Origin: Patescibacteria group bacterium
Lineage (GTDB): Bacteria; Patescibacteriota; Minisyncoccia; Minisyncoccales; GWA2-38-27
DNA length: 64,000 nt
Direction of reading: 5' to 3'
Assembly: GCA_020148045.1 (NCBI GenBank)
Contig: JAHCRG010000016.1
Coordinates: 68 to 64,067, forward strand
Shown here: positions 5,962 to 45,903 of the stretch, piece after piece
Numbering within the stretch: position 1 is the first letter of the stretch
Layout: each line of letters opens with the position of its first letter
Position numbers and translations under genes: made by a program
The notes under the pieces: model-generated
Database searches by the model: none
What the model saw: the letters and a program-made list of their open reading frames with translations, nothing else
What the model was told of the DNA's origin: nothing

Positions 5962-6004
5962 ATTGATTTTTAGCATAAAATTCAATATACTGAAAGTACT
6001 AAAT

Positions 6005-6577
6005 ATGATAGCTTATTTAGACGGCAAAATTATTATAAAAAAAGAAAAGTTTATTGTGTTAAATGTTAATGGAGTTGGTTATAAGGTTTTTTTATCTAAG
6101 AAGTCTTTAGCCAAACTGCCGGAGATAGAAAAACCGTTAAAGCTATTTTGTTTTTTAAACGTTAAAGAAAATATAATGGATCTTTATGGGTTTCTAAATT
6201 ATAAAGAACTTGAATTCTTTGAGATTTTAGAGAGCATCCGTGGCGTTGGTCCAAAAGCAGCTCTTGAAATTTCTTCTTTAGGGTCTTTAGAAAATATTAA
6301 AGAAAGAATTTTATCTAAAGATGAAGGGTTGTTTGATGGAATCCCGGGAATTGGCAGGAAAAAAGCAATGGCGATTATTTTAGAACTTACAGGAAAGATT
6401 AGAGATATTTCTAAGAAGTCCGCCTTCACTAAAGTTTCGGCGGACGAGGCAGAACAAGACCTTGTTGGTCTTGGTTTTTCTCGCGAAAAAGCGAGGGCTG
6501 CTTTAGCAAGGGTTCCAAAAGACATAAAAGACGCTGAACAAAAAATAAAACAAGCTTTAAAAATCTTAGGGAAATAA
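6005..6577 (+). CDS. ruvA: Holliday junction branch-migration complex subunit RuvA
   Basis: MIAYLDGKI start typical of RuvA. HhH motifs (GVGPK.A, GIGRKKA). Start moved to the internal ATG at 6005. Confidence 0.9.
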   Translation: MIAYLDGKIIIKKEKFIVLNVNGVGYKVFLSKKSLAKLPEIEKPLKLFCFLNVKENIMDLYGFLNYKELEFFEILESIRGVGPKAALEISSLGSLENIKERILSKDEGLFDGIPGIGRKKAMAIILELTGKIRDISKKSAFTKVSADEAEQDLVGLGFSREKARAALARVPKDIKDAEQKIKQALKILGK

Positions 6578-6637
6578 ATAAACAGAGTTTATTTAAAAGT
6601 TGACAAGAGTTTTTGATTTGTTAGTCTAAAAGTATAA

Positions 6638-6706
6638 ATGATGTATTCGGCGACTAAAAACATTATCAACCTTATTATTTTGGGACCTCTTATTGGAAAG
6701 GGGTAA
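6638..6706 (+). CDS. candidate 22-aa Ile/Leu-rich leader peptide (MMYSATKNIINLIILGPLIGKG)
   Basis: Short ORF hand-translated from the sequence. It overlaps alternative pairing segments upstream of the terminator at 6734..6766. No strong SD. Confidence 0.3.
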   Translation: MMYSATKNIINLIILGPLIGKG

Positions 6707-6733
6707 GTTGAATTTTGATAATTTTAACTAACT

Positions 6734-6766
6734 GGCCTCTTTCCTCAAAAAGAGGTCTTTATTTTT
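6734..6766 (+). terminator. intrinsic terminator / attenuator hairpin upstream of the LeuA-domain gene
   Basis: GGCCTCTTT (6734-6742) pairs with AAAGAGGTC (6749-6757), 9 bp including one G-U, followed by TTTATTTTT. Confidence 0.6.
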
Positions 6767-6797
6767 GGTCTTTTACAATTTAGAAAGGAGAAAGAAA

Positions 6798-7208
6798 ATG
6801 TTTGAAGTAATGAGCTTTGAAGTAAGAGTAAAGGGGAATCTAAATAGTTGTTTGGAAACAGAAGCTAAAATTAGAGTTAAAACAGAGCATGGGACAAAAT
6901 ATGAAATAGCCGAGGGTAATGGGCCGGTTAATGCTTTAGATGAGGCTTTACGTAAAGCTCTTTTGCCGTCCTGCCCATTTTTAGCAGAAGTCCAGCTTAT
7001 TGATTATAAAGTATTCATAATCAACGGAGAAAGGGGGACCGCTGCTTTGGTGAAAGTGGAGATTGTTTCTTCAGATGGTGATGGTAGATGGACTAGCCGG
7101 AGTGAATCAACCAATATCATTCAAGCCAGCTTACAAGCATTGGTAGATAGTTTTGAGCAGGCAATTTTAAGAAGTTCTGCTAAAGAAATAGCAGAACAAA
7201 CCGGCTAA
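6798..7208 (+). CDS. stand-alone LeuA-type allosteric (dimerisation/regulatory) domain protein
   Basis: GNGPVNALDEALRKAL and the following beta-alpha pattern match the C-terminal regulatory domain of isopropylmalate/citramalate synthases. AGGAG RBS at 6786-6790; start moved to ATG 6798. Confidence 0.7.
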   Translation: MFEVMSFEVRVKGNLNSCLETEAKIRVKTEHGTKYEIAEGNGPVNALDEALRKALLPSCPFLAEVQLIDYKVFIINGERGTAALVKVEIVSSDGDGRWTSRSESTNIIQASLQALVDSFEQAILRSSAKEIAEQTG

Positions 7209-7272
7209 GTAAATTAGTCGGTTTTTCTTTTTTTAATTTAAAAGTTTATGCTAATATGTTAGATTAAAAGAA

Positions 7273-8451
7273 ATGGTCAAAGAATTAATTAAAAAATTTA
7301 TTCCTGGTTTTTTGTTGGGGTTTTACCACTATTCATTAGCACTAATAGGAGCTTTTTTGTATGGGTTTCCTTCTCAGAAATTGACAGTTATTGGAGTAAC
7401 TGGGACTAGTGGGAAGTCAACAGTAGTAGAATTAGCTGCTGATATTTTTCAAGAGGCAGGATTTAAGGTTGCTTCTTTGTCTTCAATTAGATTTAAAATC
7501 AGGGATAAAGAATGGGAAAACAGATTAAAAATGACTATGCCTGGCCGTCTAAAGCTTCAGAAATTCTTGAAACAGGCAGTAAAAGCTGGTTGTAAATATG
7601 TAGTTTTGGAAGTGACTTCTGAGGGGATAGAACAATATCGTCACAAATTTATTAACTTTGGTATCGCTGCTTTAACTAATTTGAGCCCAGAACATATTGA
7701 ATCTCACGGTGGCTTTGAAAAATACCGGGCAGCAAAAGCAAAACTTTTTCAACAAACAAAAAAGACTCATATTATAAATATGGATGATGGGAATGCTAAA
7801 TATTTTTTAAAGTTCCCTGCTGAGAAAAAGATAAAATATGGAATAAATGATGCAGAAATTTCCCCCAAAAATTTAAAACTTTTAGGCAATTTTAATTTAT
7901 ACAATGCTATAACAGCGAGCAAAATCGCAATGTCTCAGGGAATTTCTTTGGAAATTTGCAAAAGAGCTTTGGAAAAAATAAAAGGAATTCCTGGGAGAAT
8001 GGAGATTGTAATTAAGGAGCCATTTACAGTAATTATTGATTATGCTCATACACCTCAAAGTCTCAAAGAAGTTTATGAAACAATAAAAAATAATAAACGC
8101 ATGGTCTGCGTGCTTGGCGCGTGCGGCGGAGGCAGAGATAAATGGAAAAGACCTGTTTTGGGGAAAATAGCTGCTGAACACTGCCAGGAAGCGATTATAA
8201 CCAATGAAGATCCTTATGATGAAGAGCCAATGGAAATAATTGAACAAGTGGCGGAGGGAGCTCAAGGAAAAGCTAGAAAGATATTGGATAGAAAGGAGGC
8301 AATTAAGAAGGCATTAGAATTAGCTAATCCAGGAGATATAGTAATAATTACTGGCAAAGGTTCAGAACCCTGGATGTGTGTTGCTAAAGGCAAAAAAATC
8401 CCTTGGGACGATAGGCAAATGGTTAAGGATTTGATTTTTTCAAAAAAATAA
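7273..8451 (+). CDS. Mur ligase family protein (MurE-like)
   Basis: P-loop GVTGTSGKST, LTNLSPEHIESHG, DYAHTP, and a GKG..P C-terminal domain. Confidence 0.75.
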   Translation: MVKELIKKFIPGFLLGFYHYSLALIGAFLYGFPSQKLTVIGVTGTSGKSTVVELAADIFQEAGFKVASLSSIRFKIRDKEWENRLKMTMPGRLKLQKFLKQAVKAGCKYVVLEVTSEGIEQYRHKFINFGIAALTNLSPEHIESHGGFEKYRAAKAKLFQQTKKTHIINMDDGNAKYFLKFPAEKKIKYGINDAEISPKNLKLLGNFNLYNAITASKIAMSQGISLEICKRALEKIKGIPGRMEIVIKEPFTVIIDYAHTPQSLKEVYETIKNNKRMVCVLGACGGGRDKWKRPVLGKIAAEHCQEAIITNEDPYDEEPMEIIEQVAEGAQGKARKILDRKEAIKKALELANPGDIVIITGKGSEPWMCVAKGKKIPWDDRQMVKDLIFSKK

Positions 8452-24574: not shown

Positions 24575-24598
24575 GTCTTTTTAGGTATTTTTCGAGTG

Positions 24599-24670
24599 AG
24601 CGGGTGAGCGGAATTGAACCGCCATCTCAACCTTGGCAAGGTTGCATAATAACCACTATACGACACCCGC
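24599..24670 (-). tRNA. tRNA-Gly(GCC)
   Basis: Acceptor GCGGGTG/CACCCGC, anticodon loop TTGCCAA, T-loop TTCAATT. Confidence 0.85.
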
Positions 24671-24732
24671 CTTCGTCAGCCGTAGCTGGCTTCGGCGGGC
24701 GAAGCCCGCAGAGACAGCGTAGCTGGACTTAG

Positions 24733-24806
24733 TGCCGCGAGTCAGACTTGCACTGACCACCCCAGCTTTTTCAGAGCTGTGCTCTAACTACCTGAGCTAT
24801 CGCGGC
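24733..24806 (-). tRNA. tRNA-Phe(GAA)
   Basis: Acceptor GCCGCGA/TCGCGGC, anticodon loop CTGAAAA. Unusual T-loop TGCAAGT and D-loop AGGTAGTTA. Confidence 0.85.
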
Positions 24807-24844
24807 CTAATTAAATTTTATTACATTTTTCCAAAAATTTCCAG

Positions 24845-24920
24845 TGGTGGGCGGTGAAGGATTCGGACCTACGACCTCCTCGGTGTAAACGAGGCACTCT
24901 AACCACTGAGCTAACCGCCC
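24845..24920 (-). tRNA. tRNA-Val(UAC), the only tRNA here with an encoded CCA
   Basis: Acceptor GGGCGGT/ACCGCCC, anticodon loop TTTACAC, T-loop TCCGAAT. 3' ACCA is encoded (24845-24848). Confidence 0.85.
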
Positions 24921-24923
24921 ATG

Positions 24924-25006
24924 TGCCCAGGGTGGGACTTGAACCCACACGCTCTTACGAGCCATGGCCCTCAACCATGTATGTATACCGATTCCATCAC
25001 CTGGGC
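24924..25006 (-). tRNA. tRNA-Leu(GAG)
   Basis: Acceptor GCCCAGG/CCTGGGC, anticodon loop TTGAGGG, long variable arm, T-loop TTCAAGT. Confidence 0.85.
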
Positions 25007-25428
25007 TCTTCTTTTTTCTCTTCCGTTGGTTTTTCTCTAACGATTTCTTCTTTTGGTTCTTCCTCAGCTATTGCTTCAGTAAATTCTTTCCTTTTTAGCC
25101 GGGCTTTTTTGCCTTTCGCTTTTCTTAAGTAATAAAGCTTTGCCCTCCTAACTTTTCCTCTTTTTAAAATTTCTATTTTTTCAATAGTCAGGGAGTGAAT
25201 AGGAAAAATTTTCTCTACTCCAATCCCAGAAATCACTTTTCTTACAGTTATTGTAGCAGAAATTCCTTTTCCATGCTTTTTGGCAAGAACTATACCCTCA
25301 AAGGCCTGAAGTCGCTCCTTATCTTTTTCTTTGACCTTTTGATAAACCCGAACAGTATCACCTGGACGGATGTCAGGCAGACCTTTTTTTAATTGGGTTT
25401 TGGTAAAAGTTTCAATTTTTGTAGGCAT
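24997..25428 (-). CDS. rplS: 50S ribosomal protein L19 with low-complexity C-terminal tail
   Basis: RPGDTVRV..KV.E....R.Q.FEG.V core. The reading frame only stops 10 nt inside tRNA-Leu(GAG). Confidence 0.9.
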   Translation of the reverse strand: MPTKIETFTKTQLKKGLPDIRPGDTVRVYQKVKEKDKERLQAFEGIVLAKKHGKGISATITVRKVISGIGVEKIFPIHSLTIEKIEILKRGKVRRAKLYYLRKAKGKKARLKRKEFTEAIAEEEPKEEIVREKPTEEKKEEPR

Positions 25429-26033
25429 AATTTTAAATCATCTGGCAATGCTGACTTAAATTCTTTTATTTCTCCATCTGGCAGCTTTATTTTAATGTAG
25501 CTGGCATGTAAAAATTGGCGTTTCAATCCTTCTGGGCAGGGCTGATTTTTAAAACCATACATTTTATCTCCAGCAATTGGATGGCCAAGATAAGAAAAAT
25601 GGCATCTGATTTGATGCTTTCTTCCTGTTTTGGGAGCAACTTCAACTAAAGTGTAATCTTTAAATCTTTCTATCACCTTATATTCACTAATTGCTTCTCT
25701 TTTTCCTTTGGAGCCAGGCTCAGCAGGAAGATAAACTTTTTGCTTTTTTCTGTCTTTCGGAGCTCTACCAATTAAGGCTTCAATCACCCCTTGATTATTT
25801 TTAAGATTTCCAACAACTAAAGTAATATATTTCTTTTTTACCTTTCTATTTTTAAATTGTTTTTGCAAAAAAATCAAGGCCTTATCATTTTTTGCGATTA
25901 GAAGAACTCCCGAAGTTTCTTTATCTAACCTATGAACTTTTTTCAAATCAGGATATAAATCACTCGTTACAATCCCTGCTGGTTTATCAATCACCAAGAC
26001 ATCATTATCCTCATAAATTATTTTCGTCTCCAT
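25389..26033 (-). CDS. RluA-family pseudouridine synthase
   Basis: VIDKPAG, HRLDKETSGVLL catalytic motif. ATG lies 1 nt after tRNA-Val(GAC). Confidence 0.85.
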   Translation of the reverse strand: METKIIYEDNDVLVIDKPAGIVTSDLYPDLKKVHRLDKETSGVLLIAKNDKALIFLQKQFKNRKVKKKYITLVVGNLKNNQGVIEALIGRAPKDRKKQKVYLPAEPGSKGKREAISEYKVIERFKDYTLVEVAPKTGRKHQIRCHFSYLGHPIAGDKMYGFKNQPCPEGLKRQFLHASYIKIKLPDGEIKEFKSALPDDLKLCLQKLKLLPKPN

Positions 26034-26034
26034 G

Positions 26035-26107
26035 TGGGCGCTGAGGGATTCGGACCCACGACCTTCTCGATGTCACCGAGACGCGCTAACCACTGCGCCA
26101 AGCGCCC
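26035..26107 (-). tRNA. tRNA-Val(GAC)
   Basis: Acceptor GGGCGCT/AGCGCCC, anticodon loop GTGACAT, T-loop TCCGAAT. Confidence 0.85.
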
Positions 26108-26114
26108 ATTATTG

Positions 26115-26186
26115 TGCGCACGGATGGATTCGAACCATCAACCTCGGCCTTATAAGGACCTTGCTCCGCCATTGAGCTACGTGCGC
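26115..26186 (-). tRNA. tRNA-Ile(UAU)
   Basis: Acceptor GCGCACG/CGTGCGC, anticodon stem AGGTC/GGCCG (one mismatch, one G-U), loop CTTATAA, T-loop TTCGAAT. Confidence 0.75.
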
Positions 26187-35061: not shown

Positions 35062-35825
35062 TTTATCTTGCAGACACTTGCCATTTTCTTAAGTTTCCTA
35101 AAGCCGAAGGAAACAAAAAAGGCAAGACCGCTTAAAATAATAACTAAAGAGATAACTGAGGAAGTTAATAAGAGAGAATTTTGACTCGTTAGTCCTTCCT
35201 CAATTCCTATTATAGAAATATTGAAGAGACCATGCAAGAGAGTAGCAATTACTACTCCTTTGATAATTAATTTCAGCCGTTTTTTAGATTCAAAAAAAGA
35301 TAGAGCCAAAAAATAGCCCAGAGTTCCGGAACATAAAGCATGCAAAAAAGTAGCTCCGATAAAACGGAAAGAAGTAATAGCTATGGCTTCACCAAAAAGA
35401 AGAGGCCCTTTTCCGGAAAATAAAACCAGGATATTCTCCAAAGCAGCAAAACCTAAAGCTATAATAATCATATAAAGTATAGTATCTACAGGTTCATCAA
35501 ATTCTGGATTATTTATTACTTTTTCTCTAACAATTAGATATTTAGAGCACTCTTCCACCAAAGCTATTATAAGGAAGTGGTATAAAGCAAAAAATAAAAA
35601 AGGGAAAGTTTTAAACCAGTTTTCGCCAACTATAACTAAAGCTCCGGAAATTCCTATTTCTATCAGGGCAGCTATTATAGCTGCTAGCATTCCATAAAAG
35701 AAAATTTTTAAAATCATTCTGTTTGATTCAGGATGAGCATCTTTTCGCAAGTAAAAGAGAAGCCAGATAACACTGGGAGCTAAACCAAGAAAGATGTAGA
35801 GGAGATAAATCATGATTTTGGCCAT
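35058..35825 (-). CDS. PrsW-family intramembrane protease
   Basis: Polytopic protein with VEECSKYL and HALCSG / HGLFN motifs. Confidence 0.65.
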   Translation of the reverse strand: MAKIMIYLLYIFLGLAPSVIWLLFYLRKDAHPESNRMILKIFFYGMLAAIIAALIEIGISGALVIVGENWFKTFPFLFFALYHFLIIALVEECSKYLIVREKVINNPEFDEPVDTILYMIIIALGFAALENILVLFSGKGPLLFGEAIAITSFRFIGATFLHALCSGTLGYFLALSFFESKKRLKLIIKGVVIATLLHGLFNISIIGIEEGLTSQNSLLLTSSVISLVIILSGLAFFVSFGFRKLKKMASVCKIK

Positions 35826-37855
35826 TTTTCAATCATTAAGCATTTCGTTTTGTTCTTAATGGGTATTTTCTGATAAATTTCTTCTGTTATAAATGGAATA
35901 AATGGATGTAAAAGTTTTAAAGAAGATGATAGAACATAAAGTAAAATCTTTTGAGTTTTTTTATTATCTTGCTTTTTAGATGCTTCAATATATACATCAC
36001 AAAAATCATGCCAAAAGAAATTATATAAAGTATGGGTTGCCTTCCCAAACCGAAAATTCTCCAAATCATTATTAACTGACTTTGTTGTTTTGTTTAACTG
36101 TTTTAAAATCCTTTTATCCGCAGAGGTTAAATTCTTCTCCTTGGGTTTAGAAATTAGAAATTCGAAATTAGAAATTCCGATTTGTCCCAAGACAAATCGG
36201 CTTGCATTCCATATTTTATTACAAAACTTTTTCCCCATTATCATATTATCTTTTACAAATCTCATATCTTGGCCTCCCATAATTTGGTAGGCAATTCCAA
36301 AACGAGTAGCGTCAGCGCCATAGTCATTGATAAGATTTATCGGGTCTACGCCGGTGCCAAGGGACTTTGACATTCTTTTTCCCTCTCTGGTTAGGATAGT
36401 GCTATGAATATAAACATCTTTAAATGGAATTTTTTCCATAAACTCTATTCCAGAAAAAATCATCCGGGCAACCCAAAGATTTATTATATCTCGAGCAGTA
36501 CTCAAAACATCGGTAGGATAAAAAGTTTTAAGGTCTTTAACCGAAGAGGGCCAGCCGAGCGTGGCAAAAGGCCAGAGAGCAGAGCTAAACCAAGTATCTA
36601 AGACATCTTTTTCTTCTTTTAAGGGAATCTTATGGCCCCACCAGATTTGGCGGGAAATACACCAATCTTTTATATTTTTCAGCCAATCAAAATATGGTTT
36701 TTCAAAACTTTTGGGATGAAATTTTATTTTACCCTCTTTTACTGGTTTTTCTGCCATTTTAGCTAATTTGTCCATTTTCAAAAACCATTGCTTAGAAAGA
36801 ATTGGTTCCAGAACAGTATTACATCTATAACAACGGGCAATATTATGGGTATATGGTTCTGTTTTCTCCAAAATTCCAATTTTTTTCATATCTTCTACAA
36901 TCTGCTTTCTCGCTTTCATCACCGTGAGCCCAGCATATTTTTCAGCCAGTTTTGTCATTCGTCCATCCGGACCGATTACTTGTTTTTTTTCAAGTTTGTA
37001 TTTTTCGCCTATTTCAAAATCATGAAGATCATGGGCAGGTGTTACCTTCATAGCGCCGGTACCAAAACTCATATCAACTGCTCTATCTCCAATAACCTTC
37101 ATTTTATTTTTACCTAAAACGGTTTGAATAACAATGGTTTTACCAATGTATTTTTTATATCTCGGGTCTTTCGGATTCACCGCCACGGCGGTGTCACCTA
37201 ATTTTGTTTCCGGCCTAACCGTAGCAATGGTAATAGGCCCGTATTTAATGTAATACATTTCAGCTGGTTCTTCTTTATATACAACCTCAAGGTCTGACAA
37301 ACTTGTGTAACATCTTGGACACCAATTAACAGCTCTTTTTCCCCGATAAATCCACCCCTTTTTATAATAATGTAAAAAGGCCTCTTTAACTGCAAGAGAA
37401 TAATCTTTATCCATAGTGAATCTGGTTTTGGACCAATCGCAAGAGCAGCCCAATTTTTTTAACTGGTCTAAAATAATATCTCCGTATTTATCTTTCCATT
37501 TCCATATTTCCTTGATGAATTTTTCTCGGCCCAAATCAAATCTGGTTAAGCCCTCTTTTTTAAGTTTTTTCTCAACTACGTTTTGGGTAGCAATTCCGGC
37601 GTGGTCTGTTCCAGGGAGCCAAAGGGCTTTAAATCCCTGCATTCTTTTCCAACGAATTAGAGTATCTTGAATAACTGCATTCAGAGCATGGCCCATATGA
37701 AGTCCGCCAGTAACATTTGGTGGAGGGATAACAATTGTATATGGCTTTTTGTGGCGTTTGGGAAGTTTATCTGGATTGAAAAAACCACTCTTAAGCCAGA
37801 GCTTATAGATTCTGTCTTCAACGTCTTTAGGACTATAAGTTTTAGATAGTTTCAT
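35810..37855 (-). CDS. valS: valine--tRNA ligase (short form)
   Basis: PPPNVTGGLHMGH (HIGH) and KMSKSLG motifs, plus the CP1 editing region. Confidence 0.95.
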   Translation of the reverse strand: MKLSKTYSPKDVEDRIYKLWLKSGFFNPDKLPKRHKKPYTIVIPPPNVTGGLHMGHALNAVIQDTLIRWKRMQGFKALWLPGTDHAGIATQNVVEKKLKKEGLTRFDLGREKFIKEIWKWKDKYGDIILDQLKKLGCSCDWSKTRFTMDKDYSLAVKEAFLHYYKKGWIYRGKRAVNWCPRCYTSLSDLEVVYKEEPAEMYYIKYGPITIATVRPETKLGDTAVAVNPKDPRYKKYIGKTIVIQTVLGKNKMKVIGDRAVDMSFGTGAMKVTPAHDLHDFEIGEKYKLEKKQVIGPDGRMTKLAEKYAGLTVMKARKQIVEDMKKIGILEKTEPYTHNIARCYRCNTVLEPILSKQWFLKMDKLAKMAEKPVKEGKIKFHPKSFEKPYFDWLKNIKDWCISRQIWWGHKIPLKEEKDVLDTWFSSALWPFATLGWPSSVKDLKTFYPTDVLSTARDIINLWVARMIFSGIEFMEKIPFKDVYIHSTILTREGKRMSKSLGTGVDPINLINDYGADATRFGIAYQIMGGQDMRFVKDNMIMGKKFCNKIWNASRFVLGQIGISNFEFLISKPKEKNLTSADKRILKQLNKTTKSVNNDLENFRFGKATHTLYNFFWHDFCDVYIEASKKQDNKKTQKILLYVLSSSLKLLHPFIPFITEEIYQKIPIKNKTKCLMIEKWPKS

Positions 37856-45189: not shown

Positions 45190-45903
45190 TTACCCCCTGG
45201 CGACGACTATGCCCCAGACTTCTTTGGCGCCCGCCTCCTGAAGGAGGCGGGCGCATTGTTCCATTGTTGAGCCGGTGGTGAAAATGTCATCGATTAGAAA
45301 AATTTTTTTACCCATTACTAATTCTGGTTTTTGACATAAAAATACTCCTTTGATATTTTCTTCTCTTTCTTCTTTTTTTAATTCCACTTGGGCTGGGGTC
45401 TGTTTTATTTTTATTAAGATATCATCAAAAAATGGAATCTTCAAAACCTTTGAAAGTTCTTTGGCGATTTCGCTTGCCTGGTTAAATCCCCGTTTTTTTA
45501 ATTTCTTTTTATGAAGGGGAATGGGGATGAGAATAAAATCATTAAATGTAGTTACTTTGTTTAGATTAATAAAATGAGCTATAATTGAAGAAGATAATGG
45601 TTTTGATAGTTCTTTAATATAGGGTTCATATTTGAATTGGTTTATCAGTTTTTTGACAATGAAATTATTGTAAGAAGCAGCACAGTAAAGACCATTTAAA
45701 CTTTTTGACCTCTTGCAAAAATTACAGGTTTTGCCATCAATAACAACTTTTGGCTGGGGGCAAAAAGGACAGTATTGTCTTTCTAAAATATCAATTAAAG
45801 AAAAACAATCTTGGCAGAGATAACTTCCTTCTTTACCGCAGCTGATACAAAATTTCGGAAAAAGAAGGTCAAGAATAAACTCTTTAGTTGAGGATAGATT
45901 CAT
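45190..45903 (-). CDS. comF: ComF-family phosphoribosyltransferase-domain protein
   Basis: N-terminal CxxC...CxxC zinc ribbon. C-terminal PRT motif IFLIDDIFTTGST. Confidence 0.8.
   Translation of the reverse strand: MNLSSTKEFILDLLFPKFCISCGKEGSYLCQDCFSLIDILERQYCPFCPQPKVVIDGKTCNFCKRSKSLNGLYCAASYNNFIVKKLINQFKYEPYIKELSKPLSSSIIAHFINLNKVTTFNDFILIPIPLHKKKLKKRGFNQASEIAKELSKVLKIPFFDDILIKIKQTPAQVELKKEEREENIKGVFLCQKPELVMGKKIFLIDDIFTTGSTMEQCARLLQEAGAKEVWGIVVARG

Follow-up and report, generated by a model that had tools for sequence, protein, structure and literature searches.

A putative isoleucine/leucine leader-peptide attenuator upstream of a stand-alone regulatory-domain gene in Patescibacteria

In the enterobacterial ilvGMEDA, ilvBN, leu and trp leaders, an open reading frame (ORF) with cognate codons extends over the first of four RNA segments, which can pair as a 1:2 hairpin, as a 2:3 antiterminator or as a 3:4 terminator followed by a U-tract. 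Leader-peptide attenuation of this kind is a classical mechanism; most known cases come from Proteobacteria, Actinobacteria and a few Firmicutes, nearly all of them before biosynthetic operons. Here we analyzed a 64,000-nucleotide (nt) stretch of DNA from a Patescibacteria bacterium (contig JAHCRG010000016.1 of assembly GCA_020148045.1, positions 68 to 64,067 of the forward strand; below, the window, with coordinates counted from its first letter). In this window, the 220-nt spacer (6578–6797) between ruvA and a gene for a LeuA_dimer domain had been predicted, from the sequence, to carry a trp/leu-type attenuator. Comparison of eight leaders supported this original prediction, and at the level of mechanism we infer that the element is probably a ribosome-mediated (leader-peptide) transcription attenuator of the trp/leu/ilv kind, reporting the supply of charged tRNA-Ile and tRNA-Leu. 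Judged by sequence comparison and folding models, it most likely turns the downstream gene on at a shortage of Ile or Leu.

Leader peptides have been described in Corynebacterium glutamicum (PMC3890552), and transcription of the C. diphtheriae ilvB leader (MNIIRLVVITTRRLP) starts at the start of the leader (PMC5784534). In Staphylococcus aureus, the Leu-rich attenuator peptide of ilv-leu was identified largely by the conservation of the peptide and of the terminator and antiterminator (PMC5794164). Our full-text literature search returned nothing relevant on attenuation in the Candidate Phyla Radiation (CPR)/Patescibacteria or on stand-alone LeuA regulatory domains.

Conservation of the leader reading frame and its promoter

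The decisive evidence beyond chance came, at the level of sequence, from conservation in related loci. A profile search of 5.8 billion proteins revealed nine clusters of stand-alone LeuA_dimer proteins (seven at 201–265 bits and two at ~170 bits), separated by a gap from the next matches (142 bits at most), which were pieces of full-length synthases. The contigs of these clusters supplied the leaders of the relatives, and the comparative set comprised eight distinct leaders, including that of the window, from ~5 Patescibacteria lineages; scans of genome and metagenome contigs with protein alignment yielded only full-length citramalate/isopropylmalate synthases of ~530 amino acids (aa; L009–L091). 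The promoter, the ATG, the mini-ORF, the four pairing segments, the U-tract and the Shine-Dalgarno (SD) sequence were kept in all eight leaders, and the mini-ORF and the LeuA_dimer gene always occurred together. Conservation of the mini-ORF, of its Ile/Leu run and of the pairings in homologous loci had been named beforehand as a check on the attenuator, and the outcome was positive in every leader. The window leader peptide, counted from the ATG at 6641, is MYSATKNIINLIILGPLIGKG, and those of the relatives are MYSATKNIINLIILRPLIGKR (L003, whose downstream protein is 96% identical to that of the window), MVKQTQILLSIILLELLLEKG (L004, 66%), MVKQTQILLSIILLGLLLEKG (L008, 63%), MVKQVQNLVNIIILEPLAGKGYFR (L005, 63%), MVKQVQNLVNIILIILEPLVGKGYFR (L097, 61%), MEKIIKNLLLIILGPLKGKGRFR (L101, 66%) and MSSLVWNILSLIILIEPLSGKG (L102, 50%).

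The mini-ORF lies on the plus strand at 6638–6706, encodes MMYSATKNIINLIILGPLIGKG and ends with a TAA stop codon (6704–6706); as originally described, Ile and Leu make up 8 of the last 14 residues, a count with P = 0.002 against the composition of the proteome (I+L = 20%). The frame was open in all eight leaders over 21–26 codons, while stops interrupted the +1 frame in three and the +2 frame in all of them. The distance from the ATG to the end of segment 2 was 63, 63, 63, 63, 63, 69, 60 and 66 nt across the set; the three independent length changes (+6, −3 and +3 nt) are all multiples of three, so that the insertions and deletions are in frame, and between L004 and L008 the stop codon is exchanged (TAG/TAA). 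The N-terminal third of the peptide varies freely. A run of NTN codons begins at codon 7 or 8; its second base remains T, and any of the four bases occurs at the first, so that the codons read Ile, Leu or Val. No Phe or Met codon is among them, even though TTT is what this base composition would most easily produce. In every leader, the (G/E)-P-L codons making up segment 1 directly follow four consecutive Ile/Leu codons, and both amino acids are represented in each such block. The proposed control codons of the window are CTT ATT ATT TTG (Leu Ile Ile Leu; plus strand, 6671–6682), just 5' of segment 1. For the open variable part, the in-frame indels and the fixed ATG to arise together by chance, we put the probability below 1e-3, a rough estimate and not a computed statistic. 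By these comparisons, the mini-ORF behaves as a reading frame.

The window mini-ORF has two ATGs, 10 and 13 nt past the −10 box, and the 22-codon ORF of the original prediction began at the first of them. That frame is indeed open from 6638; since L003 has lost the first ATG and keeps only the second, however, the conserved start is the ATG at 6641, which leaves 21 codons. Upstream lies a putative promoter (plus strand, 6600–6627) with a −35 box TTGACA (6600–6605), a 16-nt spacer and a −10 box TAGTCT (6622–6627). The TTGACA was invariant and was followed after 16–17 nt by TAnnnT in all eight leaders (TAATAT, TAAACT or TAATCT in relatives), and the ATG stood 8–13 nt past the −10 box in each of them. 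A consensus promoter scan missed this site because TAGTCT matches the consensus at only 3/6 positions, and the −35 box had not been part of the original description of the spacer. Read from 6641, the mini-ORF would be nearly leaderless, and it has no SD sequence. An SD-like motif was present at only ~6/58 genes of the window, and many window genes carry a −10-like box (TAATAT, TAGAAT or TAAAAT) 7–15 nt before their start, for example those at 7273, 33428 and 60517 and, on the minus strand, those at 35810–37855 and 45190–45903. By this pattern, messages with no leader or a very short one seem to be the norm in this Patescibacteria genome, so that a near-leaderless mini-ORF is nothing exceptional in it.

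The regulated gene (plus strand, 6798–7208; 136-aa product) has a different kind of start. Its AGGAG (plus strand, 6786–6790) lies 7 nt upstream of the ATG at 6798, both as originally noted, and a site of the AGGAG/GGAG type precedes the start in all eight leaders; the LeuA_dimer gene is one of the few window genes with a strong AGGAG. Such a strong SD matches a start codon ~160 nt inside a transcript and speaks, at the level of sequence, for expression of the gene from the leader promoter and against a promoter of its own. Public gene calls start at the ATG at 6810 (132 aa, P0001), for which reason the 136-aa product had no entry in a look-up, whereas in the 96%-identical relative the start corresponding to 6798 was chosen (136 aa, P0002). 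Between the terminator and the SD, a conserved TAnAAT box (plus strand, 6775–6780) reads TACAAT in the window and TATAAT in L005 and L097 and is aligned in seven of the eight leaders. Reading of the sequence revealed no −35-like hexamer 16–18 nt upstream of it, and the sole promoter-like site scanned there, TTTACA/GAAAAT (6772–6799), overlaps the start codon. The box may be a weak second or internal promoter or an element of the 5' untranslated region, and it is the chief argument for a reading in which the gene is served by its own promoter.

Alternative pairings of the leader RNA

Four segments of the plus strand can pair with one another. Segment 1 (6684–6691, GACCTCTT; core CCTCTT, 6686–6691) lies inside the ORF and can pair with segment 2 or 4. 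Segment 2 (6695–6710, GGAAAGGGGT with an extension AAGTTG; AAAGGGG at 6697–6703) extends over the last ORF codons and the stop and can pair with segment 1 or 3. Segment 3 (6729–6744) comprises the partner of the inner extension followed by GGCCTCTTTCC, with CCTCTTT at 6736–6742, and is both the 3' arm of the antiterminator and the 5' arm of the terminator. Segment 4 (6749–6757, AAAGAGGTC) is the 3' arm of the terminator and is followed by the U-tract (6758–6766, TTTATTTTT); a T-tract is present at this place in all eight leaders. The core motifs of segments 1, 2 and 3 had thus been placed correctly by the original prediction. Its 9-bp terminator hairpin was found independently by a terminator scan, which returned a 9-bp stem (6734–6742/6749–6757) with four G-C pairs and then TTTATTTTT.

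A common CCUCUU in segments 1 and 3 and a common AAGRGG in segments 2 and 4 allow four pairings (1:2, 2:3, 3:4 and 1:4). The three pairings proposed at the outset can all form, but the lowest-energy fold is a nested hairpin of 1:4 and 2:3; since 1:4 is as conserved as the other pairings, the untranslated RNA is expected to fold as this one nested hairpin. The region 6676–6768 folded at −31.2 kcal/mol (z = −4.6), and 0 of 200 shuffled sequences folded as well. In all eight leaders, the 1:2 hairpin had −7 to −9 kcal/mol, the nested hairpin −28 to −41 kcal/mol and the 2:3 helix −14 to −26 kcal/mol, the last being more stable than 3:4 in each of them. The 3:4 hairpin reached −11.7 kcal/mol in the window and −7 to −10 kcal/mol in the relatives. 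The 2:3 helix of the window, given as 7 bp in the original prediction, does exist but is longer, with 10 + 5 bp and −18 kcal/mol.

Sequence changes among the leaders were compared in a pair table anchored on the segments, which was used because the MAFFT alignments placed segment 3 of the window out of register. Compensatory change, looked for as a sign of real pairing, was seen in helix 2:3: two adjacent pairs are changed from A-U/G-C to G-C/A-U in L004 and L008, one pair is changed to G-C in L102, and the inner extension covaries between lineages (AGUUnA:UnAACU versus UUUAGA:UCUAAA). One of these compensatory changes alters the peptide (Gly to Glu) while the pair is kept. Pairings 3:4 and 1:4 have in common one G-C to A-U swap between the window and the rest. 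The 1:2 hairpin retained six to seven pairs in all eight leaders with only wobble-type changes, none of them compensatory, and segment 1 pairs equally with segment 4. Because the core segments are near-invariant, pairings 1:2 and 3:4 rest on conservation rather than on compensatory change. Among these sequences, then, the antiterminator 2:3 appears well supported, the terminator 3:4 is supported by conservation, the U-tract and one swap, and 1:2 by conservation only.

The dependence of these folds on the ribosome was modelled codon by codon: each leader was folded as far as the last base of segment 4, and a stretch the size of a ribosome, centred on the codon in question, was kept unpaired. 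In the absence of a ribosome, and for nearly every ribosome position, the probability that segment 4 is paired was 0.85–0.98, and the segment then belonged either to the terminator or to the foot of the nested hairpin beside the U-tract. With the A site on 2–4 particular codons, this probability fell to 0.00–0.3, since the mask covers segment 1 and 2:3 forms. These codons fell in the Ile/Leu block in all eight leaders, with footprint edges of +10 to +16, and corresponded to 6671–6682 in the window. The terminator still formed with the modelled ribosome on the stop codon or on the final codons before it. In this thermodynamic model, the leaders would behave as expected of a trp/leu-type attenuator.

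The mechanism that we propose starts from transcription beginning a few nt before the mini-ORF, from the promoter at 6600–6627, with the ORF being translated from a (near-)leaderless message. A ribosome reaching the stop codon at 6704 would cover segments 1 and 2, the 3:4 terminator would form, and the polymerase would stop at 6758–6766. If no ribosome is loaded, either 1:2 with 3:4 or the nested 1:4 with 2:3 would form; as segment 4 is paired beside the U-tract in both of these folds, the default state would be OFF as well. A ribosome stalled on Leu-Ile-Ile-Leu (6671–6682) would cover only segment 1 and allow the 2:3 antiterminator, whereupon segment 4 would remain single-stranded and the polymerase would read through into the gene at 6798. 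The product of this read-through would be a free-standing regulatory domain of the citramalate synthase type, a predicted binder of Ile or Leu. The transcription start, the translation of the mini-ORF, the termination and read-through and the role of the regulated protein are all proposed here from sequence. Four hallmarks of an attenuator are seen in the sequences, namely a conserved ORF, a run of cognate codons before segment 1, an intrinsic terminator and a mutually exclusive 2:3 antiterminator.

Scans against Rfam gave no family at gathering score in the window except tRNAs. At E values up to 10, the only leader family matched was Trp_leader_2 (25 bits against a cut-off of 100, E 0.36), which covered the terminator alone, besides generic long hairpins (miRNA precursors); there was no T-box match, and PyrR scored E 1.9. 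Identity of the leader as a tRNA, a riboswitch or a T-box was rejected, as the RNA-family and tRNA scans contained no such match in the leader. Elsewhere in the window, a tRNA cluster (24598–26186) includes a tRNA-Ile with anticodon UAU (read 'tat') on the minus strand (26114–26186). A tRNA-Ile with this anticodon is uncommon in bacteria, most of which decode AUA with a modified CAU tRNA.

The encoded domain and its cassette

The only Pfam match of the regulated protein was PF08502 LeuA_dimer (E 3.8e-19; 69.3 bits against a cut-off of 24.9). The original prediction had taken it for the leucine-binding domain of isopropylmalate synthase (IPMS). This part was not borne out, because positions 394–519 of the citramalate synthase model TIGR00977 were matched at 110 bits (the cut-off of the full model being 450), compared with ~34 bits for the IPMS models, and the nearest full-length relatives are TIGR00977 citramalate synthases of ~525 aa. 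The AlphaFold2 model had a predicted local distance difference test score (pLDDT) of 93, and its best Foldseek matches were 3F6G and 3F6H (template-modelling (TM) score 0.68–0.82, probability 1.00), the regulatory domain of Leptospira citramalate synthase with isoleucine, followed by the leucine-bound LeuA of M. tuberculosis. A PDB sequence search with the single protein returned nothing, and a profile gave a marginal match to 3F6G (E 0.075). The HMGL-like barrel and the linker of a full citramalate or 2-isopropylmalate synthase are missing (136 versus ~525 aa). Sequence and model together suggest a stand-alone regulatory domain closest to the C-terminal one of citramalate synthase, with IPMS fitting less well, and the domain is predicted to bind Ile or Leu. 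The regulated gene thus encodes a regulatory domain only and no enzyme, thematically related to the amino acids sensed; the Ile codons among the proposed control codons agree with the place of citramalate synthase in the isoleucine pathway. Weak Foldseek matches to tandem double-stranded RNA-binding domains (dsRBDs) of MLE and TARBP2 were also returned (E ~5e-5, TM <0.4, root-mean-square deviation (rmsd) ~17 Å); this resemblance of the tandem beta-beta-beta-alpha fold is probably at the level of topology only.

The gene is flanked by ruvA (plus strand, 5963–6577, stop codon 6575–6577) and by a Mur ligase gene of the murE type (7273–8451). Both flanks were identified with Pfam as RuvA and Mur ligase, and no catalytic domain adjoins the LeuA_dimer gene, in agreement with the original prediction. 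Promoter, leader, gene and terminator form one unit of ~690 bp (6578–7272). The nearest relatives, as ranked by their Mur ligases (84%, 79% and 74% identical; L092, L093 and L094, positions 2440–2530 in each), lack this unit: their ruvA and murE overlap by a few bases, and both the leader and the LeuA_dimer gene are missing. The unit is therefore a cassette. It was found in more distant lineages, with Mur ligases 66–68% identical, and the relatives in the Mur ligase comparison include Candidatus Nealsonbacteria. Wherever the downstream gene is visible, murE lies directly 3' of the cassette. Upstream, L101 has rpsT instead of ruvA, with the cassette promoter and leader still intact. The TGA stop of ruvA sits within the −35 TTGACA in L005 (2792–2797), L102 (1863–1868), L004 (91–96) and L008 (in L004 and L008 by reading of the sequence), unlike in the window, where the ruvA stop lies 22 nt earlier. 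The patchy distribution of the cassette fits an old insertion with repeated loss; transfer is an alternative.

The cassette is closed by a terminator (plus strand, 7198–7234) found in the terminator scan, whose hairpin is conserved in relatives (L005: 3380–3410). It overlaps the last codons Q-T-G-stop of the gene, which is why these residues are invariant. The start of murE lies only ~20 nt past this terminator in L005, L097 and L101. The attenuator motif occurred once in the 64-kb window and elsewhere only upstream of LeuA_dimer genes, so that a repeated or mobile element was rejected. Further along these loci, gene content varied: in L097 (131–850) and L098 (131–850), the fpg and holA homologues are separated by an IS200/IS605-type Y1 transposase gene that is absent at this place in L005, the genes beside rtcB differ (an ORF with a faint LAGLIDADG match at L093: 4875–5684), an archease gene lies near rtcB in Nealsonbacteria loci (L094: 4082–4456), and some loci have a glycoside hydrolase family 130 gene between murE and rtcB.

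Weighing of explanations and comparison with known attenuators

Several observations weigh against an attenuator that senses Ile and Leu. An open 21-codon frame is not rare in such sequence, and 5.6% of random ATG ORFs (18–30 codons, in this window of 35% GC) are equally rich in Ile and Leu; this richness is weak evidence, and the window sequence alone is only suggestive. The coding test gave no signal, with no excess of changes at the third codon position (19/15/14). The minimum-free-energy fold is the nested hairpin rather than 1:2 with 3:4, which suits a plain long terminator, and the RNAalifold consensus is likewise nested. The G-C/A-U swap supports 3:4 and 1:4 equally, and L003 contains two mismatches, A.C in 2:3 and C.A in 3:4. 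The gene could also be transcribed separately, from the TAnAAT box 3' of the terminator. No Ile/Leu biosynthesis gene was present among the 27 of 68 window ORFs (those of at least 110 aa) scanned against Pfam, and to our knowledge Patescibacteria generally lack such genes. The comparison, moreover, covers eight sequences from ~5 lineages with four nearly invariant core segments.

These points have to be set against what other explanations would leave unaccounted for. A small-protein gene in its own right, with a separate promoter and terminator and encoding a hydrophobic peptide of 21–26 aa (a small membrane protein or toxin-like), would explain why the ORF is conserved, its promoter strong and a good terminator placed directly after it. 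The LeuA_dimer gene would then be transcribed by leaky read-through or from the TAnAAT box, which lies downstream in seven of eight leaders in a genome where −10-dominated promoters appear common, and the alternative pairings would be incidental. We consider this unlikely, as the N-terminal half of the peptide is variable and its hydrophobic stretch covers only 8–12 residues interrupted by N/S, G/E and P, too short for a membrane-spanning helix of ~18 or more. The Gly-to-Glu change tracks the RNA pairing and not peptide conservation, the last seven codons form segments 1 and 2 of a four-way complementary set in every leader, the TAnAAT box has no −35 hexamer, a strong downstream SD in an SD-poor genome fits a long leader, and mini-ORF and gene are never found apart. 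A non-coding structured RNA is a decidedly unlikely explanation too. In that case, the long hairpin 6682–6759 and its U-tract would be a strong terminator or an insulator serving ruvA and the cassette promoter, or else a small RNA, and the ORF would be a by-product of AT-rich sequence. The nested minimum-free-energy and consensus folds, the z of −4.6 and the compensatory pairs would be expected of such an RNA, as would Rfam matches limited to sub-threshold generic long hairpins and the lack of any terminator between ruvA and the element, either in the sequence or in the terminator scan. Yet a plain hairpin needs no likeness of segments 1 and 3 or of segments 2 and 4, whereas 1:2 and 3:4 are kept in all eight leaders, and it fails on the invariant ATG at a fixed distance from the promoter, the in-frame indels and universally open frame, the Ile/Leu codon block outside the hairpin, and the dedicated promoter, which is still there in L101 without ruvA.

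Two further possibilities retain the switch and replace the signal. Leader peptides can arrest the ribosome by themselves: TnaC senses tryptophan, and the erm and cat leaders respond to ribosome-targeting antibiotics. Arrest of the nascent peptide by a small molecule (free Ile/Leu, or an antibiotic that targets the ribosome), instead of tRNA charging, could switch the hairpins here as well, given that their geometry responds to a stall of any cause and that a C-terminal motif (E/G)-P-L-x-G-K-G is conserved beside the stop. The RNA pairing of segments 1 and 2 already explains this C-terminal conservation, however, and the peptide changes where the RNA covaries; a modelled ribosome at the last codons or the stop leaves the terminator formed, the regulated gene is not a resistance gene, and the swapping of Ile, Leu and Val codons is more readily explained by codon sensing than by a specific arrest peptide; together, these points make nascent-peptide arrest very unlikely. 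TRAP and PyrR are RNA-binding attenuation proteins that respond to their ligands, and an RNA-binding protein, perhaps the encoded domain itself, might similarly stabilize one fold upon binding Ile or Leu, with the mini-ORF being secondary. Segment sequences conserved beyond the needs of pairing (CCUCUU/AAGGGG/CCUCUU/AAGAGG), the predicted binding of Ile or Leu by the encoded protein and its weak Foldseek dsRBD matches (E 5e-5, TM <0.4) speak for this protein-mediated attenuation. It is nonetheless barely credible in our view: the dsRBD similarity is poor (rmsd ~17 Å), we know of no RNA-binding role for this domain, Rfam gave no significant match of the PyrR/TRAP type (PyrR E 1.9), and the conserved frame and its Ile/Leu block would be left unexplained. 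Each of these four explanations accounts for fewer of the conserved features than a leader-peptide attenuator does.

If the attenuator operates as proposed, transcription and translation in Patescibacteria would be coupled tightly enough for attenuation despite largely SD-free initiation, and an organism probably unable to make Ile or Leu would still monitor the charging of their tRNAs. The allosteric domain of citramalate synthase could then exist as an independently regulated protein, and the locus would provide a testable entry into nutrient sensing in reduced, host-dependent bacteria, as well as a hypothesis for a tiny orphan protein family and for an RNA/short-ORF element absent from Rfam. 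A wider picture, which we offer tentatively and regard as rather doubtful, is that an auxotrophic, ultra-small CPR/Patescibacteria bacterium senses Ile/Leu starvation by a near-leaderless leader peptide and responds with an Ile/Leu-binding domain freed from citramalate synthase and repurposed for signalling or buffering instead of synthesis. The cassette, lying 5' of murE, may tie the amino-acid supply from host or environment to cell-wall synthesis. In a still bolder version, the encoded domain would bind its own leader hairpin in an Ile-dependent manner.

Compared with the enterobacterial leaders, the locus has what appears to be the same anatomy, and its mixed Ile/Leu(/Val) codons resemble those of the multivalent ilvGMEDA leader. 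It differs in having no sequence or structure homology to them (no Rfam leader family was matched), in a near-leaderless mini-ORF without an SD, in the additional 1:4 pairing that produces a nested ground state, in its Patescibacteria host and in a target that is not a biosynthetic enzyme. The ilvB, leuA and trp leaders of Corynebacterium are alike in that a short, (near-)leaderless peptide rich in branched-chain residues is followed by hairpins; phylum and sequences are unrelated, however, and those leaders control the ilvBNC and leuA operons, whereas here only a regulatory domain is downstream. In S. aureus, the regulation was tested by experiment and concerns a biosynthetic operon, in contrast to the putative attenuation of a stand-alone sensor domain at this locus. 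The encoded protein shares PF08502, positions 394–519 of TIGR00977 and the folds of 3F6G/3F6H (Ile-bound) and 3FIG (Leu-bound) with the C-terminal domain of CimA and LeuA but lacks their catalytic barrel and linker. The mechanism suggested by these sequences would be the classical one, and its interest lies in the phylum, the near-leaderless layout, the nested ground state and a sensor domain as the target.

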